Shown one piece after another: positions 7,326 to 23,037 of a stretch of DNA of 64,000 nucleotides (the stretch's first letter is position 1; each line of letters begins with the position of its first letter). The position numbers were made by a program, and so were the translations under genes. Source of the stretch: Candidatus Aldehydirespiratoraceae bacterium (GTDB taxonomy: Bacteria; Actinomycetota; Acidimicrobiia; Acidimicrobiales; Aldehydirespiratoraceae); the NCBI GenBank assembly GCA_965204595.1, contig CBDBEW010000005.1:742565-806564 (forward strand). The letters run 5' to 3'. The notes beneath the pieces were generated by a model. It ran no database searches, was not told where the DNA came from, and saw only the letters and a list, made by a program, of their open reading frames with translations.

Positions 7326-7330
7326 TAACG

Positions 7331-7575
7331 GTTGATCGACACGAACGTGGTGTTGGAGTTGGACGCGCCCGCTCCAGAGCCTCGCGTTGTTGTGTTTCTT
7401 CGATCCAGTGGCGACCTTTGGATTTCGGTGATCGTCATTCATGAACTGTACTGCGGTCTGAGGCAGTTTCCGTCGGGTCGTCGTCGTGACCAACTCACCG
7501 ACACCTTGTCGGTGTTTTTAGGCGAGTACGCCGATCGTATTCTCCCGGTTGGACTCAGCGAGGCTGACCGGGCTG
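7331..7575 (+). pseudogene. vapC: vapC (PIN toxin) 5' fragment, copy 3
   Basis: Translates LIDTNVVLELDAPAPEPRVVVFLRSSGDLWISVIVIHELYCGLRQFPSGRRRDQLTDTLSVFLGEYADRILPVGLSEADRA. This is collinear with VapC at 18393-18845. It lacks the first codons and the partner antitoxin (ISL3 remnant on the left). It ends abruptly where repeat unit B begins. Confidence 0.8.
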
Positions 7576-7598
7576 TAATGCGTTTGGGTAGGTGGGGG

Positions 7599-7964
7599 TT
7601 AAGGAGTTGTGGTCGCAGCGATCGGTTCGGTGTTTCGCCTGCCGAAAACGGCACCTTCAAGGGTGCTAATGCGCTCGCCATGTTGCATCATGTGCTGGAG
7701 TTTGTCGCCGTGTTCTTGTTGTGTCGCGGCCATTGCGGCCACGCTGACTTTCAAGGCGGTGACCTCCATGCCAAGCTTGTCAACCTTCGCTTCAAGTTTA
7801 TCGATCCGGGTGGTAAGCTCGGTTTCGAGTTTGTCTATTTTGGTGCCTAGGTCGTTGATGAGGTGTTTCATGCCGTCGACTAGGTGCTTCATAAAGTAGC
7901 CGAATCCTGCGAGGATGCCGGTTCCTAGTACGGTGATGATCGTTGCGATCAAGGTTATCTCCAT
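7599..7964 (-). CDS. Small membrane-anchored coiled-coil protein, paralogue 2 (one extra repeat unit)
   Basis: 121 aa. Same N-terminus and tail as 6536-6940 but only KIDKLE-TELTTRIDKLE-AKVDKLG. Confidence 0.7.
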   Translation of the reverse strand: MEITLIATIITVLGTGILAGFGYFMKHLVDGMKHLINDLGTKIDKLETELTTRIDKLEAKVDKLGMEVTALKVSVAAMAATQQEHGDKLQHMMQHGERISTLEGAVFGRRNTEPIAATTTP

Positions 7965-8213
7965 TGCTTATCCTTTCGTGATCCTAACACGCCTCCGCCG
8001 TGGCGGCACGATTAGGAATTGGTTTATTTTAATTTAAGATACACCAAATGTTATTAGATAACAACACACAGTTTGTTTATGAGGTGCGAAATCACTTCTC
8101 AAAGGAGTCTTGAACGAGTGCATCGTGGTGGCAACGGCATCAAGTTCTTTACAAGGAAGGTTCATTTTAAACTCGAACGGTGGCGTTGATGTGCTTTTGT
8201 GATCCAAACACGA

Positions 8214-9164
8214 TCAATTGCGGGCAGGTTGTTTGAACAGATTCTCGTAGTGCCAATCAATGTGTTCGTTGGCGGGTGGTGGGTAGCCGCGTTGGGGGGG
8301 CCGCATCGGCTCGCGTGACAGCGCGAGTAGTGGACGTGACGATGCTTCTTCGAACACGTTGAGGTGTTGACTCACCAGAATTTCGCGCTCGCCGCCGCGC
8401 ACGCCGAGTCCGAGCGCTCCACTATCGAAAAGTCGGTGATGTAATGCACACAGCGCCAAGCCGTTCTCTATCACGCTAGGGCCTTGTTTTGAATGCATGC
8501 GCAAGTGGGCGGCATCAACACTCACCGAACTTCCCCCCAAGAGTGCTCCAAAATCGCAAAATGAACACTTGTATTCGTAGGCCAACAGAATCTTTTCGCG
8601 GAACCGAGAATCACGTCGAGGCGTTTTGATCTCGGTTAGCAATAGCCCAAGTCTGCTCAGGACATCATCGTGTACCGACGCCGGGAACTCAGACTCGAGA
8701 AGAAAGTGAACGATTCGATCACGCTGCCTTGTGTCCTGTAGTGCTGCCACGAACTTGGCCGATACTCGCCCAGTCGCCTCTCGACGTAAGAAGCTGACGG
8801 TTTCACGTTTGGGTGCAGACATGGACGGTTTCAGAGGTTCCGACATCGCAAAGATGTCGGAACCGTTTTGATCCTTTACCTGCCAAAGCTCGGGCCTGCT
8901 ACCCAAGTAAACGAATGGGTGTTCGGGCTTCGGCGACGTATTCCCGACCCGGTGCTCTTCGAGCAGTCGTCTTAGGTCAGACTCAGCGTCTGCGAACCGG
9001 ACCTCAGGACTCTCTCCATTGCTCAGCCGCGCGATCAACCAAAGCAACAGCAGCGGCTTGTATGGCGCACGTTTGCCCATTGCGCTTCTGTGTTGCGGAA
9101 TCGATCGGATCACATCGATCCACGCTTCCGCACAGTTGGCATCGGCTGTCATGCCAAGCATCAT
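8214..9164 (-). CDS. HNH (HNH_2-type) endonuclease, ScoMcrA/SprMcrA-like putative phosphorothioate-DNA-binding type IV restriction enzyme, paralogue 1
   Basis: 316 aa. C-terminal CSFCDF....VDAAHLRMHSKQGPSVIENGLALCALHHRLFDSGALGL is a classic HNH_2 signature. The N-terminal GKRAPYKPLLLLWLIARL ... PEHPFVYLGS.PELWQV matches my recollection of the sulfur-binding-domain-HNH family (..HKPLLLL.., ..YPF..L..DG.W). Domain identity is from memory, not computed. Confidence 0.65.
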   Translation of the reverse strand: MMLGMTADANCAEAWIDVIRSIPQHRSAMGKRAPYKPLLLLWLIARLSNGESPEVRFADAESDLRRLLEEHRVGNTSPKPEHPFVYLGSRPELWQVKDQNGSDIFAMSEPLKPSMSAPKRETVSFLRREATGRVSAKFVAALQDTRQRDRIVHFLLESEFPASVHDDVLSRLGLLLTEIKTPRRDSRFREKILLAYEYKCSFCDFGALLGGSSVSVDAAHLRMHSKQGPSVIENGLALCALHHRLFDSGALGLGVRGGEREILVSQHLNVFEEASSRPLLALSREPMRPPQRGYPPPANEHIDWHYENLFKQPARN

Positions 9165-9618
9165 ACACGCTGCTGAGCAAGGTGTAGAATAGCCATGTCC
9201 ATTATCGGTGAGGAGTGCTTTGAGATGAGATCGGGTAGGAGCAGTTTTGGACGCGCTCCCAGATTGGGATCGACCCGGTCTATCGTGCGATGCCAGCGGT
9301 CAGGGCTTTCAAACCTTGCCGCATTGGTCTCGTCGGGTTCAAACTACACGAGTGGCGCGTGATGATCGAGCACTCTATGACCCGGCGTGACAGCGAGTCG
9401 AGACGATCCGCTCTATCCGAGGTGATCTGCCTGCCGGAGTGGAATGCAGCGTACCACTGTCTGGGGATACAAGTTCCGCCGGAAATCGGGGGAGTCGCGC
9501 AGTTTTTGCCACCACTCCTTGAAACCGCTGAAGGTCGTATCTACGGTGATGCACCGACTCGAATATTCTGGTATAGTTCAATCTAGACCATCAATCGTGT
9601 CATAGGAGGCGATGGAAC

Positions 9619-9897
9619 ATGGTTGAAGTGCTCTCAGACGAGATTTGGACAGTAGCGGCGGCGAAGGCGAGGCTGTCGGAGGTGCTGCGGTTGGCTGAGG
9701 AGGAAGGTCCGCAGCGAATTGGGAAGCGTAAGCGGTTCGTGGTCGTGTCTGAGCACGCGTGGAACGCAAAGACGATTCGCTGCAAGCACATGGGGCAGTG
9801 GTTGGTGGAGAAGATGCCGAGAGGTGCGGATCTCGCGTTGCCCGACCGCAACGAACCAGATCGGGAGACATCCTTCGCTGACTTGGAAGATGCGTGA
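9619..9897 (+). CDS. Phd/YefM-type antitoxin (partner of the decayed vapC, copy A)
   Basis: 92 aa. MVEVLSDEIWTVAAAKARLSEVLRLAEEEGPQRIGKRKRFVVVSEHAW is typical of prevent-host-death family antitoxins. Its stop overlaps the GTG of the downstream PIN gene (GTGA). Confidence 0.8.
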   Translation: MVEVLSDEIWTVAAAKARLSEVLRLAEEEGPQRIGKRKRFVVVSEHAWNAKTIRCKHMGQWLVEKMPRGADLALPDRNEPDRETSFADLEDA

Positions 9898-10325
9898 CTG
9901 GGTGGCTGATCGACACGAACGTGGTGTCGGAGTTGGCCGCGCCCGCTTCAGAGCCTCGCGTTGTCGCGTTTCTTTGATCCAGTGGCGACCTTTGGATTTC
10001 GGTGATCGTCATCCATGAACTGCACTGCGGTCTGAGGTAGCTTCCGTCGGGTCGTCGTCGTGACCAACTCACCGACATCTTGTCGGTGTTTTTAGGCGAG
10101 TACGCCGATCGTATTCTCCCGATTGCACTCAGCGAGGCTGAACGGGCTGCCGATCTGCGCGCCCTGGCACGCAGATCGGGTCGCACCGTGAACCTTGCTG
10201 ACGTTCTGATTGCAGGCACTGCTTTGGTTCACGGCCTGGGTATTGCGTCTCGAAACACGTCTGACTTTGCCGGTCACGGCATCGCACTGACCAACCCTTG
10301 GGATTCCCCGACGGTGTTGATGTAG
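9894..10325 (+). pseudogene. vapC: vapC (PIN toxin) copy A, inactivated by two in-frame nonsense codons
   Basis: In frame from GTG 9894: VTGWLIDTNVVSEL..FL*SSGDLW..GLR*LPSGRRRDQL... TGA at 9975-9977 and TAG at 10038-10040 stand where intact copy B has CGA (Arg) and CAG (Gln). Confidence 0.85.
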
Positions 10326-10823
10326 GTGATGTCACCAACCCAGACACTGTTGGCGTGTCCGACACCGAAGTCGCGGCGCACCGAGAATGGTTTCTTTGCG
10401 ATGCACAGAACCAGAGAGCAGGAACTGCGCCAACGAAGTATGGGTTGTGTCGCGGATTGGGTCGCGCAGAAGGCGTGGACGATAGAGCACTATACGAGCC
10501 TGCACGCAGTTGCAGGGAACTTGTAATGGCATTCTGTCAGAGTCTAATCTTTTCGTGACTAGATTGGGACAGGAGTGGTGGGTGTCTGTGGTTGAAAGCT
10601 TAGAGATCGCTTTTGGTGATCCCGTCTTGAAGTTTGTGACACGCGTGGCACGTCAGAGAGGCCTTTGTAGACGACTTCCACGAGAACAACGACACACAAC
10701 ACGTCGCTGTTGAAGTCGCTCACTCGCTAGGGGAGTCTCAACTGGGGTCGTCCATATCAATCGGTTCTGTATGCCCAGCGTTAAACGACCGCAGTTGCAA
10801 GGCCGGGTTATCTGTAAATGTAG

Positions 10824-10849
10824 ACAGCCCCGGCGTGTGCCGGGGCTGT
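10824..10849. terminator. GC-rich hairpin (11-bp stem, GTGT loop)
   Basis: acagccccggc-gtgt-gccggggctgt. No T-tract follows, so function as an intrinsic terminator is uncertain. Confidence 0.35.
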
Positions 10850-10930
10850 TGGCCCGAGGCTACTCACCCCGGGGGCGTAACAAAATAATATCACACACAA
10901 CCGTAGATCGGTCGACTATTTTGATGAACT

Positions 10931-11554
10931 ATGCAAATTGAACGGTTAATCGCTTACGTTGATGGCTTCAATCTCTATTATGGCCTGCGGACAGCACGCC
11001 TAAACACTTCACGCTGGCTTGATATTCACGGCTTGTGCTTGTCGTTGTTGAATTCCACACAACAACTTGATTTGGTTCGCTACTTCACCACGAGAGTCAA
11101 AGCCGATCCCAAAGCCGCCGATCGCCAGGCGATCTTCATCGACGCATTGTTGGCACGTGGGGGGATTGAGATCGATTACGGCCACTTTCTCTCGAAGAGA
11201 ACGAAATGTCATGAATGTGGTGTTGTCGTTAGGAAGCACGAAGAGAAAAAGACTGATGTCAACATCGCGGTCCGCCTTATTGAAGATGCTTATGACGACC
11301 GTTTCGACACAGCTCTGCTAATCTCAGGTGACAGTGACCTCGTCCCCCTTGTTGAATCGCTGCGAACTCGATTCTCAAGCAAGCAGATCGTCGTGGCGGC
11401 ACCGCCGAACCGTTGGTCCACGCAACTCGCACAGGCTGCGAATGCGGCGTTCCAGATATCGCCTCTTACAATCCGATCAAATCGATTGCCCGACCCTGTG
11501 AAGACTTCTGATGGAGTGATGTTGCGCGCTCCAGTGGGCTGGTTACCGCGATGA
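10931..11554 (+). CDS. NYN (LabA/DUF88-like, PIN-fold) domain protein
   Basis: 207 aa. AYVDGFNLYYG... KKTDVNIAVRLIEDAYDDRFDTALLISGDSDLVPLVESLR is the NYN-domain acidic-residue pattern. It lies in a lower-GC segment. Confidence 0.75.
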   Translation: MQIERLIAYVDGFNLYYGLRTARLNTSRWLDIHGLCLSLLNSTQQLDLVRYFTTRVKADPKAADRQAIFIDALLARGGIEIDYGHFLSKRTKCHECGVVVRKHEEKKTDVNIAVRLIEDAYDDRFDTALLISGDSDLVPLVESLRTRFSSKQIVVAAPPNRWSTQLAQAANAAFQISPLTIRSNRLPDPVKTSDGVMLRAPVGWLPR

Positions 11555-11850
11555 TAGTGGACAGTTGTCCGATTTGCTCGGAGAACACCCTCTCTTGTCG
11601 AGGTGCAGTTATTGAAGGAAGGCATGGTCTAAACCATCAAGAGATTTGAGCTTTATTGTGAATGTAGATGGGGGAGAGAGTTAAGCAGGGGTTGCGTCAC
11701 GGCGACATAGAGCCGTCGGTGTATTGGCATTGATGAACACAAGATGTTCGTGGCGAGCTGGTAGTTACTCGGACTCTCGAGGCTCTAGTGAGACTTCGAT
11801 AGAGCCTGCACTACAAGCGTTTGTGGACGCACCATTCGAAAAGACTGAAT

Positions 11851-12273
11851 TTAGATTGCGTGTGCTTGTTCGGACAACTCGAGTTTCAATGCAACGCCTC
11901 GTTCCTTCGCGTCTCTCATTACAGATACGAAATCACGCCACAGCTCGGTCTCGCGATCATTTGGATTCAACAGGACGTGATCAACCCGGACCTCTTTGTT
12001 CGACAGCAACACTGAGATCCCGCCGAAGTGGTCTGCGTCCGCGTGGGGCAGCAGTACAGTGTCGATCTGCATGATGCCCTGCGCGGCGAGGAATCGAGAA
12101 GGCGTGTCACCGCGGCACCCATCGATCGCGTACACAGTAGGTGGGTCTGCGACTACAGTCGCGGCACCATCAGCGCGGAGACTGTGTACCGCGCTTGAGA
12201 CGCGGAGGACTCCGGCGGCGGACTCGAAGCAGGGTCGCAGAAGAAGTTGCCGAGTCCTGTGGTGTCGTTGCAA
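11851..12273 (-). CDS. Short metallo-beta-lactamase-fold protein (possibly a fragment)
   Basis: ..YAIDGCRGDTPSRFLAAQGIMQIDTVLLPHADADHFGGISVLL contains the MBL H.D.DH.GG motif. At about 140 aa it is much shorter than typical MBL proteins. The start is uncertain, and the IS3 element sits about 80 bp upstream. Confidence 0.4.
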   Translation of the reverse strand: MQRHHRTRQLLLRPCFESAAGVLRVSSAVHSLRADGAATVVADPPTVYAIDGCRGDTPSRFLAAQGIMQIDTVLLPHADADHFGGISVLLSNKEVRVDHVLLNPNDRETELWRDFVSVMRDAKERGVALKLELSEQAHAI

Positions 12274-12355
12274 ACCCCGAAGGTGCTGTGGGCAGGCGAA
12301 ACGCTCACCGCTGGGCCGCTACCGGCCCTTGACACAGAGGGCTCCTCCATAATGA

Positions 12356-13681
12356 TGAATCACACCGGGTTTGGTAGAGACTTGGTTTTGTGTGTGTCTG
12401 TTGGTTTGTGGTTGGGTTTTGATTGTAGTGGGTGTTTTGTGTTCGGTGGGGGTGGTGTATCGGCCACCTAGGAGTTGGCTGTGGCTGCGTCGGTGGTTGT
12501 ACCAGTCGACGTATTCGAGGGTGGCGAACTCGACTTCGCGTAGGTTTTGCCAGGGTTCGTGGGGGTAGATGAGTTCTGATTTGTATAGGCCGTTGAAGCT
12601 TCAGGTCATGGCGTTGTCGTAGCTGTCGCCCACTGAGCCGACCGAGGCGACGATGATGTTGTTGTCGTCGAGTCTGGTGCTGTAGCGGATGGACAGGTAT
12701 TGCGATCCGCGGTCGCTGTGGTGAACCGCTCGGTCGGTTCTGCGGCCGTCGCGACGGCGTGTGGCGATGGCCATGGTCTGACGCGTCGAGGGCCAGTTTG
12801 GTGTGTGGTGTGTGTGATGCCCGCCAGCGGAGAACACGACGCGAGTAGGTGTCGATGACAAACGCCAGATACACCCAACCGCAGCCGGTTCGCACCCGAC
12901 TGAGATCGGCGAGCCGCAACCGGTTTGGGGCGTCGACACCGAAGTGGCGGTTCACCAGGTCGCCGGGTGTGTCGCTGCCGACGGGTGGCGTGGTGGTGAC
13001 CGGTTCTTTGCCTCGGCGGGTGCCGACTAGCCCCATCTTAGACATCAAAGGTTCAACGGTGCAATCCGCCACCACCACGCCGGCGACGCGGTTGAGGTGG
13101 TCCCACATTTTCGCGGCAACATAGGCACTGTAGTTGGCTTCATAAACTCGCGCGATCAACAAAGCGAGCTGCGCGTCGCGCAAAGCACACGCCGACGGCG
13201 CCCGCTTGGTGAACGCGTAGTAGGTGGACGGGGCGATCTGTCGCCGTGCTCTGTGAGCACCGCGCAAAACAGGATCGAAGTCGAACCGGTGCCGGTAAGC
13301 GTCGATGAACGACACTACAACCTTGACTGACCGTCGAGCTCCACCCCGACCAAAGCCGAAGCCGCGGCCAAAATCTCGTTCGCTCGGCGCAGCTCACGGT
13401 TCTCGCGTTCAAGATCCTTACCACGCTCACGCTCGACGCTAGTCACCCCCACACGCACCGTTGTCGATCTCAAAACGATGCACCCACTTGCGCACCGACT
13501 CCACAGACAGACCCAGCTTCAAAGCAACCGAACAAATCGCGTCGGCGAGATCCATAAAGCCTCTCATTATCAAGCACCATCCTCACCGCCCGCTCACAAA
13601 GCTCAGCCAGATATCTTCTGTTGTTTGTAATAACTCCATCCTCTCAAGGAAAAAAGTCTCCACCAAACCCGGGGTGATTCA
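12356..13681 (-). mobile_element. Degenerate IS3-family insertion sequence (1326 bp)
   Basis: Terminal inverted repeats TGAATCACACCGGGTTTGGTAGAGAC (12356-12381) and reverse complement TGAATCACCCCGGGTTTGGTGGAGAC (ending at 13681). OrfA-like ..AELCERAVRMVLDNERLYGS.. and OrfB-like ..WVYLAFVIDTYSRRV.., ..HHSDRGSQYLSIRY..SVGSVGDSYDNAMT*SFNGLYKSELI.. lie in several frames with an in-frame TGA. The transposase is therefore non-functional as sequenced. Confidence 0.85.
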
Positions 13682-13775
13682 ATGCTTTCGGGTAGGTGGG
13701 GTTAGGGAGATGTGGTCGCAGCGATCGGTTCGGAGTCTATGTTTCGCCTGCCGAAAACGGCACCTTCAAGGGTGC

Positions 13776-14039
13776 TTATGCGCTCGCCATGTTGATCATG
13801 TGCTGGAGTTTGTCGCCGTGTTCTTGTTGTGTCGCGGCCATTGCGGCCACGCTGACTTTCAAAGTGCTGACCTCAATACCAAGCTTGTCAACCTTCTCTT
13901 CGAGTTTGTCTATTTTGGTGCCTAGGTCGTTGATGAGGTGCTTCATGCCGTCGACTAGGTGCTTCATAAAGTAGCCGAATCCTGCGAGTATGCCGGTTCC
14001 TAGTACGGTGATGATCGTTGCGATCAAGGTTATCTCCAT
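13776..14039 (-). CDS. Small membrane-anchored coiled-coil protein, paralogue 3 (no extra repeat unit, frameshifted C-terminus)
   Basis: 87 aa. Identical N-terminus, KIDKLE-EKVDKLG only. A 1-nt deletion relative to copies 1 and 2 (catgatcaacatgg versus catgatgcaacatgg on the coding strand) changes ..QHMMQHGERISTLEG.. to ..QHMINMASA*. The lost tail is still readable in the next frame. Confidence 0.6.
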   Translation of the reverse strand: MEITLIATIITVLGTGILAGFGYFMKHLVDGMKHLINDLGTKIDKLEEKVDKLGIEVSTLKVSVAAMAATQQEHGDKLQHMINMASA

Positions 14040-14288
14040 TGTTTATCCTTTCGTGATCTTAACACGCCTCCGCCGTGGCGGCACGATTTGGAATTGGTTT
14101 ATTTTAATTTAGGATACACCAAATGTTATTAGATAACAACACAAAGTTTGTTTAATCGGTGCGAAACCACTTCTCAAACGAGTCTCCAACGAGTGTATCG
14201 TTGCGGCAACCGCACGAAGTATTTTTCAAGGCAGTTCAACTGTATCCTCAAACAGTGGCGTTGATGTACTTTTGTGATCCAAACACGA

Positions 14289-15239
14289 TCAATGTCGTGC
14301 TGGGTGTTTGAAAAGGTTTTTGAAGTGCCAATCAATGTGCTTGGTGGCGGGGGGTGAATAGCCGCGCTGAGGTAGCCGCATGGGTTGGTTTGACAGCGCG
14401 AGAAGTGGACGCGAAGATGCTTGTTCAAAAATGTTTAGGTGTTGACTCACTAATATTTTGGGTCGATCCTCTTGTACTGTAAGCCCGATTGCGCCTCTGT
14501 CGAACAACTGATGATGTAACGCACATAGTGCTACGCCGTTTTCGATCACACTGGGGCCTTGCATTTCCCGTGTGCGAACGTGTGCTGCGGCTACACTCAC
14601 GGGACGGTCTCCTAGATAGGCTCCAAAGTCACAGAATGAACATCGGTATTCGTATGCCAGCAGAACGATTTTGTGAAACGATTCGTCTAACTCAAGCGAT
14701 TTCGTATCAGGTAGGCTGAGTCCAACTCTACCCAACAATTCTTCGTGTCTTGATTCTGGGAACTCCGACTCCAACAGGAAAGTGACGATTTGGTTACGTT
14801 GTATTGGGTCTAGGATCACTTCGGTGAACTCTTCAGAGACCCTGCCGGTTGCCTGTTGTCGTAAGAAGGTCACATTCTCACGTGCTGGGGTTGAGCTTGC
14901 AGAACTGAGAGGTGCTGACATCGCAAAGATGTTTCTCCCTCGAGTGTCTGTTACTTGCCAGAGCTTTGGTTTGCTTGCCAAGTAGACGAATGGATGCTCG
15001 GGCTTTGGACTTGAGTTTCCGACTTTAAATGTATTGAGCAAATCTCTTAGGTCAGTTTCGGCATCTTCAAACCGGAACTCAGGGTCGTGTCCATTGGTCA
15101 AACGACCGATCAACCACAACAGCAGTAGTAGTTTGTAAGGTGCGCGCTTGCCCGACGCATCCGTGTAAACCGTAATTGATCGGATCACGTCTATCCACAC
15201 GTCCGCACTGTTGGCATCGGCTGTCACGCCAATCATCAT
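14289..15239 (-). CDS. HNH (HNH_2-type) endonuclease, putative PT-DNA-binding type IV restriction enzyme, paralogue 2
   Basis: The track ORF (to 15575) has a 112-aa extension with no counterpart in paralogue 1. MMIGVTADANSADVWIDVIRSI.. at 15239 aligns with the paralogue 1 start MMLGMTADANCAEAWIDVIRSI... Same GKRAPYK(L/P)LLLLWLIGRL, PEHPFVYL and CSFCDF...AAHVR...ENGVALCALHHQLFDRGAIGL motifs. Confidence 0.65.
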   Translation of the reverse strand: MMIGVTADANSADVWIDVIRSITVYTDASGKRAPYKLLLLLWLIGRLTNGHDPEFRFEDAETDLRDLLNTFKVGNSSPKPEHPFVYLASKPKLWQVTDTRGRNIFAMSAPLSSASSTPARENVTFLRQQATGRVSEEFTEVILDPIQRNQIVTFLLESEFPESRHEELLGRVGLSLPDTKSLELDESFHKIVLLAYEYRCSFCDFGAYLGDRPVSVAAAHVRTREMQGPSVIENGVALCALHHQLFDRGAIGLTVQEDRPKILVSQHLNIFEQASSRPLLALSNQPMRLPQRGYSPPATKHIDWHFKNLFKHPARH

Positions 15240-15404
15240 AGTCGCCATCGACGGTGGCATGCACATGCTAGCTCCATTATCCACGGGGAGTGCCTTGAAA
15301 TCGGGTAGGAGCAGTTTTGGGCGCGCTCTCAAATCAGGACCGTCTCCGTCTATCGTGCGATGCCAGCAGGCAGGGCTTTCAAGCTTCGCCGCATGGAGTG
15401 GAGT

Positions 15405-15650
15405 TACACCGGTTTCGCCGATGGCGTGGTGTTCAATGAGTCGGTGCTGTTCGGCGACTGGCTTGAGGCGCATGGCATGTCGGTTGCGGATTTGGTGGGT
15501 TTGGCAACTGATTATTGTGTGCGTGTTACGGTTCTCGAAGCGGTGGGTTTTCGCATGAAGGTCTTGTGGGGGCATTGCGCGGGGTAGGCTGTTGAGAGTT
15601 CCGAGGCTGCGCTCACCGAACTCGCCGCCGCTGGTGTCACATTGAAGTAG
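15405..15650 (+). pseudogene. pncA: Nicotinamidase/pyrazinamidase (isochorismatase family) 3' fragment with in-frame stop
   Basis: YTGFADGVVFNESVLFGDWLEAHGMSVADLVGLATDYCVRVTVLEAVGFRMKVLWGHCAG*AVESSEAALTELAAAGVTLK* is collinear with the C-terminal half of PncA proteins (..YSGF...L..WL...GV..VDVVGIATD.CV......A...G....VL.DLTAGV....T..AL.EM..A.V.L). Internal TAG at 15585-15587. The N-terminal half is missing. Confidence 0.7.
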
Positions 15651-16035
15651 TTAGACTATTGACATAATCTTTTGAGTATATTGTGTTGTTACGTGTTACG
15701 TTTCCTTTTGGGTCTGGCTAGGTTTGATGTATGGATGCCGAAACGATAGCGCAACTGGTCTCGTTGATCTTAGCTGTGTTGGGTATTGTGACGCGTCCCG
15801 TATCACGGATTTCGTGACACCACATATGTATACGCGACGTCTTTGCGTGTCGATGTCAGAGCACCGGCTACTTGGCCTTGTCGGGGAGGCCGGAGCGGGT
15901 GGTGACCGCCTCACCGGCGATCTGCGCCTGCTTCGGCCTCGTCCGCAGTCTTGGCGGGGAGAGTTCGAGGTGTACCGGTACGGGTGGGCCTCGGCATCTT
16001 TCTTTCAGACTTGGGCCGTTCAGACGACGACCGGG

Positions 16036-17577
16036 TCAGGTCGGCTCGGGGAAGCGGAGACGTGGGCCGGCTTCGGCCCAGTCCATGTGGTCGCGGATGT
16101 ATTCGTTCGATCCGTCGCGCACGGGTGTGTAGTCCCAGGAGTAGTGGCCGTTGATGGTCATGGCGGTGTGGAGCATCCGTCGGCTTCGCTGTGATTCCAG
16201 GACCCGTCGGCGGATGTCGTCGCTGTTCCAACGCTGCGCGGTCTCTGCGGCGAAGTTCGCGGACAGCTCGGCGTGGGCGGGGTCCTCTGCGAGGTTGGTG
16301 CGTTCCAGCGGGTCGGCTTCGACGTCGTAGAGCAGGGCTGGGTCGCTGTCGCAGTGGATGTACTTGTGCCGGCCCCGGCGGATCATGAACATCGGGTGTG
16401 CCGTCATCTCGCCGGTGTACTCGGCGATGGTCTCGTCTACGGGGTCGTGTCCTCCGGTCGCGCTCTCCCAAAGGCTGCGCCCCGCCGGCGGCACGACCGG
16501 TTCGATGCGTCCGCCGCGGGTGCCGTTGCCGTTGCCGCCGGTGCTGTCTCCTGCGATGTCGAGCATGGTGGGCAGCAGGTCGAGCAGTGAGCAGACGTTG
16601 CTGACGCTGCGGTCGGCCACACCGGGCCCGGCCACGATCAACGGCACCCGCAGTGACCGTTCGAAGAAGTTCATCTTGAACCACAGGCCGCGGTCTCCGA
16701 GCATGTCGCCGTGGTCGCTGGTGGCGATCACGATGGTGTTGTCGAGTTGGCCGGTTTCTTCGAGGACTTTGATCATCCGCCCGAGCAGGGAGTCGAAGTA
16801 GCTGGTGTTGGCGTAGTAGGCGTGGCGGGCGTTGCGGCACTGGTCTTCGGTGTAGCCGATGGTGTCGGCGCAGATGCCGTGGCGGATTCTCAGCGTGTGG
16901 GGGTCGGGCGATTCGAGTGTGTCGTCGGGCAGGTCGATGTCGTCGTGGTTATAGAGGTCCCACCATTCGGGGCGGGCCACGTAGGGGTCGTGGGGGTGGA
17001 TCAGCGCAGCCGCCATGAACCAGGGTCGTTCGTCGGCGTCTCGGGCGAAGTCGTAGAGCTGGCGTGTGGTGGAGAACCCGACTTCGTCGTCGTAGTCGAT
17101 CTGGTAGGTGGCCAGGGCCTGACCGGCCTGTGAGAGGCTGTCCATGTTGTGGTACCACTTGTCGATCCGCTCGTCGGGCGCGTCCCAGTCGGGTGTCCAG
17201 GAGAAGTCGGCGGGGTAGATGTCGGTGTTGAGCCGGCGGGTGAACCCGTGGAGCTGGTCGGGTCCCACGAAGTGCATCTTGCCGGTCAGCACGGTGCGGT
17301 AACCGGCGAGGTTGAGGTAGTGGGCCATGGTCGGGACCCGCGCCGGGAACTCGGCCGCGTTGTCCCAAGCGTCGATGGCGGTGGCCTGCCGGCTTGCCAG
17401 CATCGAGAACCTCGACGGGGCACACAGCGGGACGTGACAGTACGCCGCGTCGAAGCGCGTGCCCCGCTCGGCGAGGGCGTCCATCGCCGGCGTGCGAACC
17501 AGCCGATGGCCGTAAGCACCAGTGAAATGCGGCGCCAACTGATCCGCCATCACCATCAGAATGTTGGGTTGTCTCAC
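16036..17577 (-). CDS. betC: Choline-sulfatase family sulfatase (paralogue 2)
   Basis: 513 aa, collinear and highly similar by eye to 4687-6192. Same CAPSR signature. It has a small G/N-rich insertion (GDSTGGNGNGTRGGRIEP versus GDYCGKGRVEP) and a divergent C-terminus. Confidence 0.8.
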   Translation of the reverse strand: MRQPNILMVMADQLAPHFTGAYGHRLVRTPAMDALAERGTRFDAAYCHVPLCAPSRFSMLASRQATAIDAWDNAAEFPARVPTMAHYLNLAGYRTVLTGKMHFVGPDQLHGFTRRLNTDIYPADFSWTPDWDAPDERIDKWYHNMDSLSQAGQALATYQIDYDDEVGFSTTRQLYDFARDADERPWFMAAALIHPHDPYVARPEWWDLYNHDDIDLPDDTLESPDPHTLRIRHGICADTIGYTEDQCRNARHAYYANTSYFDSLLGRMIKVLEETGQLDNTIVIATSDHGDMLGDRGLWFKMNFFERSLRVPLIVAGPGVADRSVSNVCSLLDLLPTMLDIAGDSTGGNGNGTRGGRIEPVVPPAGRSLWESATGGHDPVDETIAEYTGEMTAHPMFMIRRGRHKYIHCDSDPALLYDVEADPLERTNLAEDPAHAELSANFAAETAQRWNSDDIRRRVLESQRSRRMLHTAMTINGHYSWDYTPVRDGSNEYIRDHMDWAEAGPRLRFPEPT

Positions 17578-17711
17578 AGGTGCGATACTACTAGCCGAAG
17601 CCTTGTCGGGAGCGTCCTAACGGGCCGATTAGACGCTTGTGGACCATCGAGCCACTCACGTCCTACAAGGCAAATCCTGAAATTGCATTGTAGACGCTTG
17701 CCAGTTATGCT

Positions 17712-17990
17712 TTGGCAATGTCTGCTAGTGAGTCGTCTGATCGTGGAACGGTTGCGATCGTGGATGTCCGAGTCTCTGAAAGAGGCCAGATGAGCCTTCC
17801 AGCGGCCGCCCGACACCGCTGGGGCCTCACCGACGGTGGGACAGTCGGCTGCCTCGACCTGGGAGACGGGATGCTGCTCATCCCCAAGAACCTGGACGCC
17901 TTTCGTCGGGAGCTCTTGGAAGCTGTTTCTGAAGAGGACTGGGACGAAGCCCGAGCTGGGTTCGGAGACCCGGATCTGGCCACAGAGTGA
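17712..17990 (+). CDS. AbrB/MazE/SpoVT-family antitoxin-like protein (no adjacent toxin)
   Basis: 92 aa. VSERGQMSLPAAARHRWGLTDGGTVGCLDLGDGMLLIPK is a SpoVT-AbrB looped-hinge-helix pattern. No toxin ORF follows before the vapBC copy B module. Confidence 0.65.
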   Translation: MAMSASESSDRGTVAIVDVRVSERGQMSLPAAARHRWGLTDGGTVGCLDLGDGMLLIPKNLDAFRRELLEAVSEEDWDEARAGFGDPDLATE

Positions 17991-18117
17991 CAAGCGGAGT
18001 GACGCAGTTAGTCGACGACCGCATCCTGTCATCTCCCAATGCTAAATCTGATATAGTCCAATTTAGATGATATAGTCTAATCTAGACCATTATCCACGAC
18101 ATGGGAGGCAATGGAAT

Positions 18118-18396
18118 ATGGCTGAAGTGCTCTCAGACGAGATTTGGACAATCGCGGCGGCGAAGGCGAGGCTGTCGGAGGTGCTACGGTTGGCTGAGGA
18201 GGAAGGTCCGCAGCGAATTGGGAAGCGTAAGCGGTTCGTGGTCGTGCCTGAGCACGCGTGGAACGCAAAGACGATCCGCCGCGAGCACATGGGGCAGTGG
18301 TTGGTGGAGAATATGCCGAGAAGTGTGGAGCTCGAGCTACCAGACCGCAACGAACCAGATCGGGAGACATCCTTTGTAGCCTTGGAAGATGTGTGA
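18118..18396 (+). CDS. Phd/YefM-type antitoxin (copy B)
   Basis: 92 aa, near-identical to 9619-9897. Stop TGA 18394-18396 overlaps the vapC GTG. Confidence 0.8.
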   Translation: MAEVLSDEIWTIAAAKARLSEVLRLAEEEGPQRIGKRKRFVVVPEHAWNAKTIRREHMGQWLVENMPRSVELELPDRNEPDRETSFVALEDV

Positions 18397-18845
18397 CTGG
18401 GTGGCTGGTCGACACTAATGTGGTGTCGGAGTTGGTTGCGCCGGCACCAGAGCCTCGTGTTGTCGCGTTTTTGCGATCCAGTGGTGACCTTTGGATGTCG
18501 GTGATCGTCATCCATGAACTGCACTGCGGTCTGAGGCAGCTTCCGGTAGGTCGTCGCCGTGACCAACTCACCGACACCTTGTCGGTGTTCGTTGGTGAGT
18601 ACGCCGGTCGTATTCTCCCGGTCAGTCTCAGCGTCGCCGACCGGGCCGCTGATCTGCGCGCCCAGGCACGCAGATCGGGTCGCACCGTGAACCTCGCTGA
18701 CGCTCTGATTGCAGGCACCGCCCTAGTTCACAGACTGGGGGTTGCGACTCGAAACACATCTGACTTTGAGGATCACGGCATTGCGCTTACCAACCCTTGG
18801 CATTCACCTCCAGAACTGACTGGCCACTCAGAAAGCGGGGTTTGA
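18393..18845 (+). CDS. vapC: VapC PIN-domain toxin (copy B, intact)
   Basis: GTG at 18393 (GTGA overlap). VTGWLVDTNVVSEL...IVIHELHCGL...NLADALIAGTALVHRLGVATRNTSDF shows the PIN acidic residues D..E..D..(N)..D. The track ORF start at 18258 is an upstream extension inside the antitoxin gene. Confidence 0.8.
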   Translation: MTGWLVDTNVVSELVAPAPEPRVVAFLRSSGDLWMSVIVIHELHCGLRQLPVGRRRDQLTDTLSVFVGEYAGRILPVSLSVADRAADLRAQARRSGRTVNLADALIAGTALVHRLGVATRNTSDFEDHGIALTNPWHSPPELTGHSESGV

Positions 18846-18896
18846 ACTGAGTTGTTGTTGGTATGCGTCAACTGAATCGGCGCAACACAAGTTTCA

Positions 18897-19844
18897 TCAC
18901 TGTCGAGCCGGCTGTTTGAATAGATTCTCGTAGTGCCAGTCAATGTGTTCTTTGGCGGGCGGCGAATAGCCGCGTAGAGGGGGGCGCATGGGTTCGCGTG
19001 ACAGCGCGAGCAGAGGGGGTGACGATGGTTCGTCGAAAACGTTCAGATGTTGGCTCACAAGAATCTCACGCTTGCCATCGGTCACGCCGAGACCGATGGC
19101 ACCACTGTCGAACAGTCGGTGATGGAATGTACATAGCGCGATACCGTTCTCGATCCTGCTTGGTCCCTGCTTGGCGTGCATGCGCAGGTGCGCTGCATCT
19201 ACCCCCACCGAACGCCCGCGCAGATAGGCACTGAAGTCACAGAATGAACACTTGTTTTCGTAGGCGAGCAGAACTTTCTCGCGAAAAGCTGGGTCGCGTC
19301 CGACCGTTTTGTTTTCAGTTAAACAGAGTCCAACGCTATTCAACACATCCTCATGTGTTGATTCTGGAAATTCTGCGTTCAAGAGGAAGCGAACAATCTC
19401 GTCACGTAGTATCGGATCCTTGAGTGCCGCTGCAAACTCGTTAGAAACTCGTCCATTTGCTTGCTCCCGCAAGAAGCTGACTGTCTCGCGCGCGGGAGTG
19501 GATCTCGAAGGATCGATTGGGCCTGACATTTTGAAAATGTCCTGTCCATCCTTGTCGGTCACTTGCCACAGTTCAGGTTTGCTACCGAGGTATACAAAAG
19601 GATGTTCAGGTCTAGGTTTTGCGCGTCCATATCCGAACTCGTCGAGCAGCTTCTTCAAGTTAGATTCGATATCCTTGTAGCGAAATTCAGGCTCGGCTCC
19701 ATTAGCCAATCTTCCGTCAGCCACAAAAGAAGCAACGGCTTATAGGGTGCGCGTTTGCCTGCTGAATCTTGATATCGGCGCATCGATTGGATGATGTTGT
19801 ATCTATTCGCTTACGTCGTTGGACTCGGCTTGCACGCCAATCAA
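18897..19844 (-). pseudogene. HNH endonuclease paralogue 3 (operon-linked), N-terminal region broken by two frameshifts
   Basis: Intact from GTG 19724 downstream (..GRLANGAEPEFRY...PEHPFVYLGSKPELWQV...CSFCDF...AAHLRMHAKQGPSRIENGIALCTFHHRLFDSGAIGL). Upstream, LIGVQAESNDVSE (frame 1) switches to NIIQSMRRYQDSAGKRAPYKPLLLLWL (frame 2) and back to frame 1. The TTG at 19844-19842 lies 1 nt after the SNF2 stop. Confidence 0.75.
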
Positions 19845-19845
19845 C

Positions 19846-21570
19846 TTACTCTCTAACGCGAGTGCTGCAAAGAATTCCCAACCAATTCATCAAGCGCCCA
19901 TTAGGTGCCAACACCCGAGATTGACCTAAGTAGGCTTTGGTAGAGTCTCCCGATGAGTGAACGCGACATCTCATTCTTTCTAATTTGATGTCGGGTTGTA
20001 AGAGTTTGCTGGCGAAATCGGGACGGTGCTGGAGCGCGTCGATGAGTTGCGCGAACGTTAACTCCTTGCGGTCGAGCAGGGGTTGAAGTCGGTCTTCTAC
20101 CGTATTTGTGCAGGTCAAGTTATAAATCGTGACGGGCTTGTGCTGCCCGATGCGCACGATGCGGTCTATCGCCTGAGAGTTGGTGGACGGATTCCACCAT
20201 CGGTTGATGAAAATTGCATGGTTCGCCTCGGTCAGAGTGAGGCCCTCAGACGCGACGCGCATGGATGCGAGCAGCACCGAACACTGGGCATCGGTTCGGA
20301 ACCTCCGGATGATCCGGCCGCGCTGATCGAGTTCAAGTTCGCCGGTAAGTAGAGCGGCATTGTCACCCATCTCGGCTCGCAACCGCCGCGCAAGTTCTCT
20401 CAGCGGACCGAGTGTGTAGGAGAACACAACGCACTTCTCGCCTCGATCAGTGATCTCTTTTAGCAACTCCACTGCGCGGTTGAGCTTTGAACTATCGCCC
20501 GTCGTCGGGTCCATATCGCAAATGGTGCGGAGATCGTTGAACAGTGCCAGCCACTCTCCTTGGCGCACTCCCTGTGAAGCTGACGAGTATGCCGATCGCT
20601 GCGCTGGTGAGAGCACCACCACTTCAGTTCGTTCGGTAACCGGCGGGAGTTCTGGAAGCACCGATTCCTTGAGGCGTCTCAGAATGTAGGGTCGCGCTCG
20701 AGCCCGCAAAATCTCAGGCCCAAGCCTCGCGTCGTCGACGGCGAAACGGATCGGCTCCAACAGGGACAGCAGCCCGGCCAGATCGTCAGCGTCGCGTTCG
20801 ACCGGTGTACCGGTTAGTGCCCAGAGTCTCTTCGTCTTGATTCGTCTCAGGCCTTTGTGGGCCAGCGAATCCGATTTGCGAAGTCGATGCGCCTCGTCAG
20901 CAACGATGACATCGGGAGGGTGTTGCAGAAGGCTGGACGGTGGGTCTCTGACATCCTCATAGCTCGCTATAAGCACGTGACATTGAGCAGCTGCCTGCTT
21001 CCAGTTCAATACACGGCCGCGCCCTGCACTACTTGTGTAGTGCCCGACGACGAGTTCAGGTGCCCATCGGCGCGCTTCCGCCTCCCAGTTCGCGCGTAGC
21101 GTCTTCGGAGCGACGACGAGGCAGAAACTGATCCTGCCAGCGCGGAACAACCGTCGAAGCGCCGCAATCACTTGGATCGTCTTGCCGAGTCCCATGTCAT
21201 CAGCGAGGATAGCGCAATCGCGACGCAACAGCCAAGCCACTCCTGTGCGCTGGAACGGGTAGAGTTGGTCGTTCACTCGACGCGGCAATAATAGCGGAAG
21301 CACCAAATCCAACGCACGATCGCGATCGCGCTCGTGACCTGGCCTTGGATCAAAAGACCACGAAAGTGTACATGGTGCAACTTGCTTGAGCTTCCAGACG
21401 ATACCAGCATCGAGCGAAAGCAATAGTTCTACAGCCCGAGCCAAACGCGCCGGAACTGTGTGATCGCTGCCATTCAACGCAACCTCAAGGATAGTCCGCT
21501 CACCCGCTAGCGTCAGTTTCGCCGAGAGCCCTTTCTTATCAAGCGCAAGCGACCATAGCGGGACACACAC
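19846..21570 (-). CDS. SNF2-family helicase
   Basis: 574 aa. LADDMGLGKT (motif I), VADEAHRLRK (DEAH), ALTGTP, and C-terminal helicase motifs LLASMRVASEGLTLTEANHAIFINRWWNPSTNSQAIDRIVRIGQ. Confidence 0.85.
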   Translation of the reverse strand: MCVPLWSLALDKKGLSAKLTLAGERTILEVALNGSDHTVPARLARAVELLLSLDAGIVWKLKQVAPCTLSWSFDPRPGHERDRDRALDLVLPLLLPRRVNDQLYPFQRTGVAWLLRRDCAILADDMGLGKTIQVIAALRRLFRAGRISFCLVVAPKTLRANWEAEARRWAPELVVGHYTSSAGRGRVLNWKQAAAQCHVLIASYEDVRDPPSSLLQHPPDVIVADEAHRLRKSDSLAHKGLRRIKTKRLWALTGTPVERDADDLAGLLSLLEPIRFAVDDARLGPEILRARARPYILRRLKESVLPELPPVTERTEVVVLSPAQRSAYSSASQGVRQGEWLALFNDLRTICDMDPTTGDSSKLNRAVELLKEITDRGEKCVVFSYTLGPLRELARRLRAEMGDNAALLTGELELDQRGRIIRRFRTDAQCSVLLASMRVASEGLTLTEANHAIFINRWWNPSTNSQAIDRIVRIGQHKPVTIYNLTCTNTVEDRLQPLLDRKELTFAQLIDALQHRPDFASKLLQPDIKLERMRCRVHSSGDSTKAYLGQSRVLAPNGRLMNWLGILCSTRVRE

Positions 21571-21618: not shown

Positions 21619-23037
21619 TTACCGTTGCAACCCAGACACAATCTGTTGCCACATGTCGGTTGCTTCGTCCTCAGCGGACAACGGCAGATAACTCTTCCAT
21701 AGGTTGTGAAGGCTGTTTTCTTCTGAACCGGAGATCTCGTCGTCACTGAGTTGATCGAGGCCGATTTGCCAGCGGACGATCCGCTCGACAAGACGAAGTC
21801 TAGGATCTCGATTTTCGTTAGCAATTCGCCAACTACCAGTTTCCGACATCACGAGGAGAATGTGTCTCCAAGGTGGAGAGTGAGCATCCCAGGTGACTTG
21901 CGCTAGCGGTGACAGTACCAGCGAAGCGTCCGTTTGAGTAAAAGCGGCACCGTGGGCCATTGATCTCGCTTGCGCGTCGTCTAAGATTGCTCTGACTAGA
22001 TCAGCAAAGAGGATTTGAACTATCGGCCAAAATAGCACACAGTCTTGTGATGTTTCAGCGTTCCCCTCATCTTTCGGAGCTGGGTTGTGGATACGGCTCG
22101 TGCTTGGCTTATCGTACAAGACCGGTAATGCTTCCAATATCGCGTCCCAACAGAACATCAACTCCGCTTCCAATGCATCTATTTCTTCCTCAGGTGGTCG
22201 AAACTTCACGTACTCTTTGATCCGAGTCTTCTCAGAACCCCAACCTTCATTCCGCCTCTGCGCTGTTGACAACAAGCGGGTGTTGAGAACGTAGAGTATC
22301 TCGAGGGTTGTGAAATGATTAGAACCAGGAGAGAGGTTCTTGCCGCTGGACATCTTGACTTTGGACGAATCAAATTCCGAACCCGGCTCAGCGAAAAACG
22401 AGTGGTTCGAGATAAGTCGACGCGTTATTATCGCAATCGCATCATCTTCATCCATGACGATATTGTCGTATTGTGACATCGGTTTTGCGTATCGGTTGAG
22501 GTTCCCGAACAGACGGCGGTATCTCAATAAGAATTCGCTCTCGGATTCCATCTCCGTAGGTAATACACAAATCACACTGACTTCCTCGTTGCCAAAGTCC
22601 TGCGGTATGCTGAAATCTGTCTCCTTGTCAAGAAGGAGTCGGATTGCTGCTAGGCGATGCTGACCATCGAGAGCATAATAGTTCTGTTCACCATTGAAGG
22701 TCAGGATTCCGAACGATTCTGAAAGACGGCGATCATCTCTGAACAGTCTCAGTTCAGGGTTGTCCTCAAGACTGACTGGGCGCCATTGAGGTTCTCCATG
22801 CAACACTGCTACTACAATGGACGAGAAGAACCGATCGTCTTGCCTAACGAGGTATTTGGCGATCTCGTTCGTGGCGCGATTCTTGTTCAATTGGCGTTGA
22901 ATTGCATCAGATAGTTGAGTCGGACCGTGTATCTCTTCTGCGTACCGAATGTTCTGCGCTAATTCACGCATTGACATTCGCACCATAAAGTACTCCCAAC
23001 GTCCCATCTTTGCTTTGATTGCTGGATAGATTTGCAT
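21619..23037 (-). CDS. DGQHR-domain (DndB/ParB-like) protein
   Basis: 472 aa. ..QRQLNKNRATNEIAKYL.. and ..YYALDGQHRLAAIRLL.. are the diagnostic DGQHR/DndB-family motifs. Long unassigned C-terminal half. Confidence 0.8.
   Translation of the reverse strand: MQIYPAIKAKMGRWEYFMVRMSMRELAQNIRYAEEIHGPTQLSDAIQRQLNKNRATNEIAKYLVRQDDRFFSSIVVAVLHGEPQWRPVSLEDNPELRLFRDDRRLSESFGILTFNGEQNYYALDGQHRLAAIRLLLDKETDFSIPQDFGNEEVSVICVLPTEMESESEFLLRYRRLFGNLNRYAKPMSQYDNIVMDEDDAIAIITRRLISNHSFFAEPGSEFDSSKVKMSSGKNLSPGSNHFTTLEILYVLNTRLLSTAQRRNEGWGSEKTRIKEYVKFRPPEEEIDALEAELMFCWDAILEALPVLYDKPSTSRIHNPAPKDEGNAETSQDCVLFWPIVQILFADLVRAILDDAQARSMAHGAAFTQTDASLVLSPLAQVTWDAHSPPWRHILLVMSETGSWRIANENRDPRLRLVERIVRWQIGLDQLSDDEISGSEENSLHNLWKSYLPLSAEDEATDMWQQIVSGLQR

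Follow-up and report, generated by a model that had tools for sequence, protein, structure and literature searches.

Three genes that encode putative phosphorothioate (PT)-dependent type IV restriction endonucleases, each joining a sulfur-binding domain (SBD) to an HNH nuclease domain, were found within 12 kb of one another, beside an SspABCD-type PT-writing operon, in a 64,000-nucleotide (nt) stretch of DNA from a Candidatus Aldehydirespiratoraceae bacterium (assembly GCA_965204595.1, contig CBDBEW010000005.1, positions 742,565 to 806,564), hereafter called the window. Comparison with loci from related Acidimicrobiia contigs, labelled L001 to L098, revealed such nuclease genes both beside apparently intact writers and at sites without an Ssp system, and this combination argues against strict incompatibility of the two systems as well as against an obligate dependence of the nuclease on the writer. 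Herein, we propose with moderate confidence that these nucleases act as autonomous enzymes against DNA carrying a foreign type of PT and spare the marks of the host through context specificity. This interpretation is favored because it explains both the coexistence with intact writers and the survival of the enzyme after writer loss.

Results

The first gene, HNH1 (8214..9164), and the second, HNH2 (14289..15239), both on the minus strand, are intact, and each is translated into a protein of 316 amino acids (aa). A longer open reading frame (ORF) of 428 aa at HNH2, reaching up to 15575, is a mere upstream extension, and the start common with HNH1 lies at 15239. The third gene, HNH3 (18897..19844, minus strand), downstream of an SNF2-family helicase gene, is a pseudogene. 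HNH2, the most divergent of the three, shares 65% of its protein sequence with HNH1, and HNH3 shares 71%, far beyond chance. A preliminary description of this DNA had listed two intact copies and a third, frameshifted twice, and had regarded the operon-linked copy as dead; the three-way DNA alignment bears this out and adds a stop codon that the description had not mentioned. HNH3 begins at a TTG (19844) one base after the TAA stop codon of the SNF2 gene (19846-19848), in the arrangement TAA-G-TTG, and carries a nonsense codon (TGG to TAG) at 19803-19805, one additional base at ~19800, three nt past the TAG, and the loss of one base between 19717 and 19716, 84 nt further downstream. The two indels cancel each other, which returns the final 275 codons to the original frame, where they contain no stop. 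The residual ORF starts at a GTG (19724), encodes 275 aa and is without the half of the sulfur pocket that holds Y35 and K36. All three lesions lie outside homopolymers and are therefore probably real mutations.

Several analyses place the three proteins in a known enzyme family. First, the NCBIfam model NF045808 ("phosphorothioated DNA-binding restriction endonuclease") was matched end to end, with 210.4 bits for HNH1, 199.6 bits for HNH2 and 194.1 bits for the residual ORF of HNH3, at a curated cut-off of 180 bits. Second, the precomputed Pfam annotation of the window proteins and their homologues contains PF26340 (DNA-SBD_ScoMcrA) together with HNH_2; the local copy of Pfam reported only HNH_2, and PF26340 is thus known from the precomputed annotations alone. 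HNH_2 matches all three copies, in agreement with the signature noticed earlier. Third, a phmmer search of PDB sequences aligned residues 8-101 of HNH1 with the SBD of SprMcrA (7cc9/7ccd/7ccj; E=3e-8). Fourth, an AlphaFold2 model of HNH1, built on 73 homologues and having a mean predicted local distance difference test score (pLDDT) of 90.8, was matched by Foldseek to the SprMcrA SBD (7ccd/7cc9/7ccj; probability 1.0; target-normalised TM-score 0.70-0.74), to the ScoMcrA SBD (5zmo; target-normalised TM-score 0.77; root-mean-square deviation 3.5 A) and to the Hga SBD (8h0l). The top PDB matches of the model are all SBDs bound to PT-DNA, and the next ones, TagI, VcaM4I and McrA, were reached via the HNH half. 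The N-terminal domain (170 residues; pLDDT 91) therefore models as the sulfur-binding domain that had been proposed for it.

The likeness to ScoMcrA that had been suggested for the overall architecture holds for the SBD and the HNH domain, but not for the SRA (SAD) domain: no Pfam match to such a domain was obtained, the SBD ends at ~175 and the HNH domain starts at ~186 of the 316 aa, and in 5zmn and 5zmm, Foldseek aligns nothing but the SBD to the HNH1 model. Judged by profiles and modelled fold, the three genes are of the two-domain SBD-HNH type, as in SprMcrA and EcoWI, and not of the SBD-SRA-HNH type of ScoMcrA. With no SRA domain, the reading of 5-methylcytosine or 5-hydroxymethylcytosine is not expected of HNH1 and HNH2. 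The enzyme family is already known and ordinary, and the three genes add members to it. From this membership, PT-dependent binding and cleavage are predicted for HNH1 and HNH2.

The contacts published for SprMcrA and ScoMcrA (PMC7470945; PMC6224610) were used to map the sulfur pocket of HNH1, which comprises R32, Y35, K36, H82, P83 and Y86. R32 is equivalent to the phosphate-contacting R29 of SprMcrA and R/K90 to R85; Y35 to SprMcrA Y31 and ScoMcrA H116; K36 to Q32 and R117, at a position that is mostly Lys among SBDs; H82 to Y78 and Y164; P83 to P79 and P165; and Y86 to A82 and A168. All three copies have P83, K36 and Y35. In a set of 113 homologues, P83 occurs in 113/113 and K36 in 112/113, position 35 is Tyr in 75 and His in 37, and the lid position 82 is occupied by Tyr (62), Asn (19), His (17) or Phe (10). 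The preliminary description had remarked on a His in place of the usual Tyr in the pocket. Y78-P79 of SprMcrA do align with H82-P83, but His is not unusual here: because 17/113 homologues have it and because the corresponding Y164 of ScoMcrA, which is tied to sequence context, is kept in just 7/23 SBDs (Liu et al. 2018, PMC6224610), His-82 is a normal variant of the family. The HNH/CCCH zinc residues C200, C203, H220, N234, C239, H242 and H243 do not vary across the 73-sequence alignment and are kept in HNH1, HNH2 and HNH3. The sequence motifs said to be shared by the copies are present with small deviations, HNH2 reading GKRAPYKLLLLLWL and PEHPFVYLASKPKLWQV.

The writer operon lies on the minus strand. 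The genes sspA (30472..31641; class-V aminotransferase/cysteine desulfurase; Pfam Aminotran_5, 240 bits), sspB (29395..30471; DUF4007; PADLOC SspB 328 bits, Pfam DUF4007 267 bits) and sspD (24887..25735; PAPS-reductase-like; PADLOC SspD 357 bits, Pfam PAPS_reduct) are intact, and SspD has the same 282 aa in all relatives. In contrast, sspC (25728..29373) is split into overlapping ORFs in different frames, 27529-29373 and 25728-27821, as had been recognized before. The first ORF covers positions 2-535 and the second positions 546-1104 of the PADLOC SspC profile, with 561 and 471 bits, and SspC also matches the PADLOC profiles BrxC/PglY. By profile matches, SspA, SspB, SspC and SspD are all present, with the sspC frame interrupted.

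Downstream of sspD, the same strand carries orfX (23532..24899), whose 455-aa product has a sigma-70 r3/r4-like helix-turn-helix (HTH); a gene for a small GIY-YIG nuclease-domain protein (23053..23538; Pfam 25.8 bits), the position of which is kept in relatives; a DGQHR/DndB-like gene of the ParB superfamily (21619..23037; Pfam DndB 105 bits; TIGR03187), whose product has 1090 homologues at E<=1e-20; and the SNF2-family helicase gene (19846..21570; Pfam SNF2-rel_dom and Helicase_C), which resembles the helicase core of ZorD/DpdE/DrmD in PADLOC and is the last intact gene of this Ssp-linked effector module. No PADLOC match to SspE, SspF, SspG or SspH was obtained among these four proteins, whose only hits there were DndB-like and SNF2. 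The SNF2 gene follows the DGQHR gene in L011, L013, L086, L088, L090 and L091 as well. The N-terminal part of the orfX product is strain-variable, with total lengths of 455 to 1076 aa. Between the window and L097, a close strain from another sample, nt homology (88-91% identity over sspABCD) ends at the sspD/orfX junction (24887-24899; L097:7214-7226); the two orfX products have ~46% identity over the C-terminal part and differ in the N-terminal part (455 aa in the window, elsewhere at least 673 to 1076). The effector module thus appears to have been swapped as a cassette.

The closest homologues of the three nucleases are encoded in metagenome-assembled genomes of Acidimicrobiia (Candidatus Aldehydirespirator, Candidatus Poriferisodalis and Acidimicrobiaceae). 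In these relatives, the Ssp variant has the order SspABCD, orfX, GIY-YIG, DGQHR, SNF2, often with an SBD-HNH gene at the distal end. An SBD-HNH gene adjoins an apparently intact SspABCD in five loci: it is co-directional and straight after SNF2 in L086, convergent and abutting the SNF2 end in L011 and L013, convergent at 5 kb from Ssp in L012, and convergent on DGQHR-GIY-YIG-SspDCBA in L096, where the enzyme has the His-82 pocket seen in the window. PT readers and writers, which had been described as normally incompatible in one cell, thus stand side by side in this lineage. The Ssp-linked nucleases form at least four clades with a mutual identity of 30-50%, and all of them pass NF045808; those of the relatives are stop-free, with catalytic and pocket residues kept.

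At other loci, a decayed Ssp system lies beside the SBD-HNH gene, with broken sspB and sspC in L003, sspA fragments alone in L001 and L010, and an SNF2 fragment in L005. In L004 and L093/L094, the SBD-HNH gene occupies the syntenic glyoxalase-to-sulfatase site with no Ssp. The nuclease is intact in L001, L003-L005 and L093/L094, and the suggestion that it may serve the Ssp system as a writer-dependent effector is weakened by its persistence there. The Ssp variant is also found with no SBD-HNH gene within 10 kb (L090, L091 and L092), and a metagenome scan with the DGQHR alignment returned just 4 loci. The idea that His-82 marks writer-incompatible enzymes fitted the window, L001 and L003-L005 and was dropped because the His-82 enzyme of L096 adjoins an apparently intact SspABCD. 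In L013, two SBD-HNH genes lie near Ssp (6186-7160 and 8912-10876), with pocket types Q82 and F82, and one of the two lies in an ORF that continues upstream into a DUF222-like region, which may be a fusion or just an open frame.

The frame of sspC in the window is lost exactly at a poly-C18 tract of Pro codons (27705..27722, minus strand; G18 on the plus strand), and the writer would be off in this assembly because of it. With a tract length of 17 or 20, the frame would be kept and the product would read ...EYAPPPPPDAFSCYDG..., continuous with the C-terminal half; at this site, relatives encode just P-[LP]-[DE]. A C12 tract occupies the orthologous site in L097 (L097:4253-4264) and is also out of frame, the gene being called as 612 + 607 aa. 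A G12 tract at a different codon (~405; L090:5015-5026) breaks the sspC of L090, another close relative. The sspC genes of L088, L091, L092, L096 and L011-L013 read through the tract sites and have no homopolymer there. In the whole 64 kb, only two homopolymers of at least 8 nt were found, the C18 of sspC and a G16 at 1365-1380. Thus, a frame-setting homopolymer lies inside the ORF, its length is polymorphic between strains (18 vs 12), and the sspC tracts bear the hallmarks of contingency loci at the level of the sequence. No in-frame (ON) sspC allele was seen, the lengths of 18 and 12 both being divisible by 3 and out of frame, and a search with the reconstructed junction protein returned mostly fragments and no full-length close homologue.

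The mod genes of type III restriction-modification systems are phase-variable in Neisseria, Haemophilus and Helicobacter, and pglX of the Streptomyces Pgl/BREX system carries a G-tract. The sspC genes resemble these phase-variable genes in having a long G/C homopolymer of strain-variable length within the ORF of a modification component and differ from them in that just out-of-frame alleles are seen. No report of phase-variable PT writers was found in the literature search. The G16 at 1365-1380 (C16 on the minus strand) precedes by ~15 nt the start of a minus-strand gene, which exits at the window start and encodes a secreted repeat protein, with a signal peptide followed by 'DTxFGxxG' repeats; tracts that switch the expression of surface or secreted proteins are typically placed in this way. 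In L098 (9560-9720) and L003 (14128-18219), sspC, and in L003 also sspB, is split by non-homopolymer frameshifts or stops, which represent either real decay or indel errors because both contig names are typical of long-read assemblies.

The age of the three nuclease genes was assessed from pairwise ratios of nonsynonymous to synonymous substitution rates (dN/dS) and proportions of synonymous differences (pS), both by the Nei-Gojobori method. Synonymous sites are saturated among the copies (pS 0.67-0.77), and dN/dS is 0.09-0.15 with the HNH3 comparisons included (HNH1 vs HNH2: dN/dS 0.15, pS 0.67). These values show that purifying selection has long acted on all three copies and that HNH3 was inactivated recently, its dN/dS against the other copies being just 0.09-0.15. 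A neighbor-joining tree groups the three copies in one clade, with homologues from other metagenomes (P0002-P0004) interleaved and HNH2 basal. A recent tandem duplication was rejected in view of the saturated synonymous sites and the interleaved foreign homologues; the copies are, as far as their sequences tell, paralogues of old date or alleles that were brought together from different lineages.

Sliding windows along the HNH1 and HNH2 regions showed 96-98% identity in the downstream element, ~80% over the final 150 nt of the gene, 55-70% across its core, and 80-85% in the first 100 nt and the 100 nt upstream. Such a gradient is expected when a divergent core is exchanged by recombination or gene conversion at its conserved flanks. 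Variability among the proteins is greatest in the loop 68-81 and the long loop 98-122, which by position may be the counterparts of the SprMcrA backbone loop 34 and base-reading loop A5. Positive selection on these SBD loops was not detected (loop dN 0.34-0.57 vs ~0.25 overall), and the loop dN/dS ratios are uninformative because dS is saturated.

The three copies sit in a mosaic of repeats, which in a self-BLAST consists of sulfatase genes, 0.6-kb elements, vapBC, an insertion sequence (IS) fragment and an NYN-domain gene. The 0.6-kb element, termed the B element, lies downstream of HNH1 (7579..8145, minus strand), with further copies at 6517-7121 and, downstream of HNH2, at 13683-14220; the copies are 91-95% identical by self-BLAST and 96-98% in sliding windows, and they differ by repeat-number indels. 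Each contains a small minus-strand gene (6536-6940, 7599-7964 and 13776-14039) for a membrane-anchored coiled-coil protein, in which a coiled coil of 11-residue repeats (DKLETDLTNRI) comes after an N-terminal transmembrane helix, and no homologue of this protein was found in the related loci retrieved. The vapBC module is present in two and a half copies of 88-94% identity. An intact pair, vapB (Phd-like antitoxin, 92 aa; 18118-18396) and vapC (PIN toxin; ~18393-18845), is encoded on the plus strand and converges on HNH3; a second pair upstream of HNH1 (9619..10325, plus strand), 88% identical in nt to 18068-18808, has an intact vapB and a vapC with two in-frame stops; and a vapC fragment lies at 7330-7575. 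Two 213-aa minus-strand ORFs (9578-10219 and 18077-18718) were considered as a conserved partner and rejected as an Arg/Ser/Pro-rich nonsense translation; they are spurious because the substitutions fall at third positions of the plus-strand vapBC frame.

Two sulfatase genes (4687-6192 and 16036-17577; 83% nt identity) flank the repeat region, and a sulfatase gene adjoins the Ssp locus in relatives too, which suggests a role as a recombination anchor. The NYN-domain gene (10931-11554) and the IS3-like integrase fragment (12305-13315) lie between HNH1 and HNH2. Scans for tRNA genes and Rfam families found nothing that would indicate island borders or regulation, and a promoter/terminator consensus scan gave just uninformative matches in this respect. 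Elsewhere in the window, a class II lanthipeptide synthetase-like gene (DUF4135 + LANC_like; 47368-50109), an RmuC gene (57382-58668) and an Eco57I-type methylase-domain gene (61269-63047) were observed.

Discussion

In the present study, SBD-HNH nucleases were found next to Ssp writers, and we propose that they restrict foreign-type PT-DNA independently of those writers. First, the winged-helix SBD would, by homology, dock the Rp sulfur of the PT link in the pocket formed by Y35, K36, H82, P83 and Y86, the long loop 98-122 would read the neighboring bases in the major groove, by analogy with loop A5 of SprMcrA, and the C-terminal zinc-stabilised HNH domain would cut near the PT site. Second, HNH1 and HNH2 would most likely be type IV (modification-dependent) restriction enzymes directed against incoming DNA with a foreign PT pattern, and the Ssp marks of the host, assumed to be hemi-modified CpsCA, would probably be tolerated via sequence-context specificity. 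About ten characterised SBDs are sequence-specific, and recognition of the Ssp-type CpsCA has been demonstrated with Hga alone, for the first time in a PT-dependent enzyme (Hu et al., PMC10602919). Third, the copies may have accumulated or been exchanged by recombination at their conserved flanks within a recombination-prone defence island at the distal end of Ssp, where HNH1 and HNH2 have been kept by purifying selection and the operon-linked HNH3 was inactivated recently.

Comparison with characterised systems sets these nucleases among known enzymes. They share with SprMcrA of Streptomyces pristinaespiralis and with EcoWI the two-domain SBD-HNH layout of ~300 aa, the SBD fold, an NF045808 score above the cut-off, and an HNH_2 catalytic core with a CCCH zinc site, and with SprMcrA in particular the pocket Pro (P83 for P79), the aromatic residue (Y35 for Y31) and the basic phosphate contact (R32 for R29). 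They differ from SprMcrA in an SBD identity of only ~20%, in the lid His for Tyr, in a Tyr at the equivalent of A82, as in most of the subfamily, and in a Lys at the equivalent of Q32, as in most SBDs; three copies within 12 kb that are linked to an Ssp writer are a further difference from SprMcrA and EcoWI. ScoMcrA of Streptomyces coelicolor is similar in the SBD fold, in pocket residues (P165 for P83, R117 for K36 and Y164 for H82) and in its zinc-finger HNH domain, and differs in its SRA domain and its length of roughly 460-530 aa (5zmm chains), compared with 316 aa in the window. The adjacent operon resembles SspABCD-SspE and SspABCD-SspFGH in having SspA, SspB, SspC and SspD, and it differs from them in that orfX, GIY-YIG, DGQHR/DndB-like and SNF2 genes, often with SBD-HNH, take the place of SspE or SspFGH. 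In addition, genes for a winged HTH (wHTH, the SBD), SRA and HNH domains have been described directly downstream of Dnd writers and proposed to be a restriction arm for self/non-self discrimination (Aravind lab, NAR 2024, PMC10853773). A PT-reading HNH nuclease at the distal end of a writer cluster is common to those loci and to ours; the Ssp writer, the lack of SRA, the variable orientation and a nuclease that outlives its writer are particular to the loci described here.

Several points weigh against the interpretation of autonomous, context-specific enzymes. PT dependence and specificity are deduced by homology at ~20% identity to solved SBDs, and the CpsCA type of the Ssp marks of the host is an assumption. 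Moreover, the occurrence of at least four divergent SBD-HNH clades at the same distal end of Ssp goes beyond what coincidence within a defence island would give and hints at functional coupling rather than simple tolerance. Finally, a writer that is off together with a dead operon-linked copy, as in the window, would also be expected if writer and reader were antagonists.

It is usual to regard PT writers and PT-dependent nucleases as antagonists. The preliminary description had pointed to mutual exclusion or switching between PT writing and PT restriction. In the form considered here, which we hold to be unlikely, the SBD-HNH enzymes would cut the PT of their own host, the poly-C tract of sspC would toggle the cell between PT-writing and PT-restricting, and the loss of HNH3 would be part of the resolution of the conflict. 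The idea has gained a candidate mechanism in the hypermutable poly-C tract, since sspC is broken exactly there, the length of the tract is polymorphic at the orthologous site in L097, and a different tract breaks the gene in L090. In the HNH clade of the window, the writer is also broken or absent in each of the window, L001 and L003-L005. Furthermore, in the sole survey of gene neighborhoods met with in the literature consulted, <3.6% of PT-dependent enzymes are encoded near a dnd cluster, and broken writers are one of the suggested explanations, next to inactive nucleases and different specificities (Lutz et al. 2020, PMC7461809). However, only OFF alleles have been seen, C18 and C12 alike. 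An intact SBD-HNH gene abuts an apparently intact SspABCD at five loci (L011, L012, L013, L086 and L096), and L096 combines the His-82 pocket type of the window with an apparently intact writer. In addition, because HNH1 and HNH2 are intact, turning the writer ON would be suicidal under this model, and a reversible switch would therefore not be maintained.

Alternatively, the SBD-HNH protein could be a PT-sensing effector of the Ssp system, licensed or positioned by the PT marks of the host so that it cleaves the unmodified DNA of invaders alongside the DGQHR, SNF2 and GIY-YIG proteins, a proposal that we hold to be quite unlikely. It would be analogous to the PT-stimulated SspE and would match the model of Aravind and colleagues for the wHTH(SBD)-SRA-HNH genes after Dnd (PMC10853773). 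The conservation of the neighborhood across deep divergence, with at least four clades at the distal end of the same Ssp variant, also speaks for such a role, as do the HNH3 start one base past the SNF2 stop codon, the co-directional order in the window and L086, and the presence of two SBD-HNH genes near Ssp in L013. Nevertheless, orientation is not conserved, the convergent arrangement (L011, L013 and L096) being as common as the co-directional one; the enzyme survives undamaged at loci from which the writer has been deleted (L004, L005 and L093/L094); the Ssp variant often occurs without the enzyme within 10 kb (L090, L091 and L092); and the biochemically characterised SBD-nuclease fusions in the literature consulted all cut PT-DNA, none being licensed by PT (PMC6224610, PMC7461809, PMC10602919).

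A very unlikely extension would couple the Ssp writer and the SBD-HNH readers of this Acidimicrobiia lineage into a single, population-level "write-or-read" defence. Slippage in sspC would then yield PT-marked cells in which the DGQHR/SNF2/GIY-YIG module blocks unmarked phage, PT-free cells would use their battery of SBD-HNH enzymes against phage PT-marked in sibling or neighbor cells, the distal placement of the SBD-HNH genes would reflect the coupling, and the diverged copies would cover different PT contexts. If this were true, the classic escape route of modified phage would be closed.

It is highly improbable that the sspC frameshift is an assembly artefact and that the true tract is in frame (17 or 20) with a possibly functional writer: the length of long G/C homopolymers is difficult to determine, the frame is lost through a single-base register error in an 18-nt run, and the source contig is 809,574 bp long, with several related contigs named as in long-read assemblies, but an independent scaffold with a short-read-style name (L097) carries C12, likewise out of frame, at the orthologous site, the sspC of L090 is broken elsewhere by an out-of-frame G12, a coding homopolymer of 12-18 nt is intrinsically unstable at any true length, the HNH3 lesions lie outside homopolymers, one being a base substitution, and an artefact of this kind would alter the state of the writer and not the instability of the tract.

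Returning to the favored interpretation, of autonomous nucleases directed against foreign-type PT-DNA, the linkage of nuclease and writer runs through an Acidimicrobiia lineage that is sponge-associated judging just by names such as Candidatus Poriferisodalis, and it includes several divergent clades and both intact and decayed writers. These loci therefore provide a natural comparative series for asking whether SBD-HNH enzymes ignore hemi-modified CpsCA, cooperate with the writer or drive its loss. In addition, the homopolymers in the sspC genes of three strains (C18, C12 and G12) would, if confirmed in reads, represent phase-variable DNA phosphorothioation. Moreover, the three diverged SBDs, with their different loops, are candidates for new PT-context specificities that may be useful for PT mapping tools.

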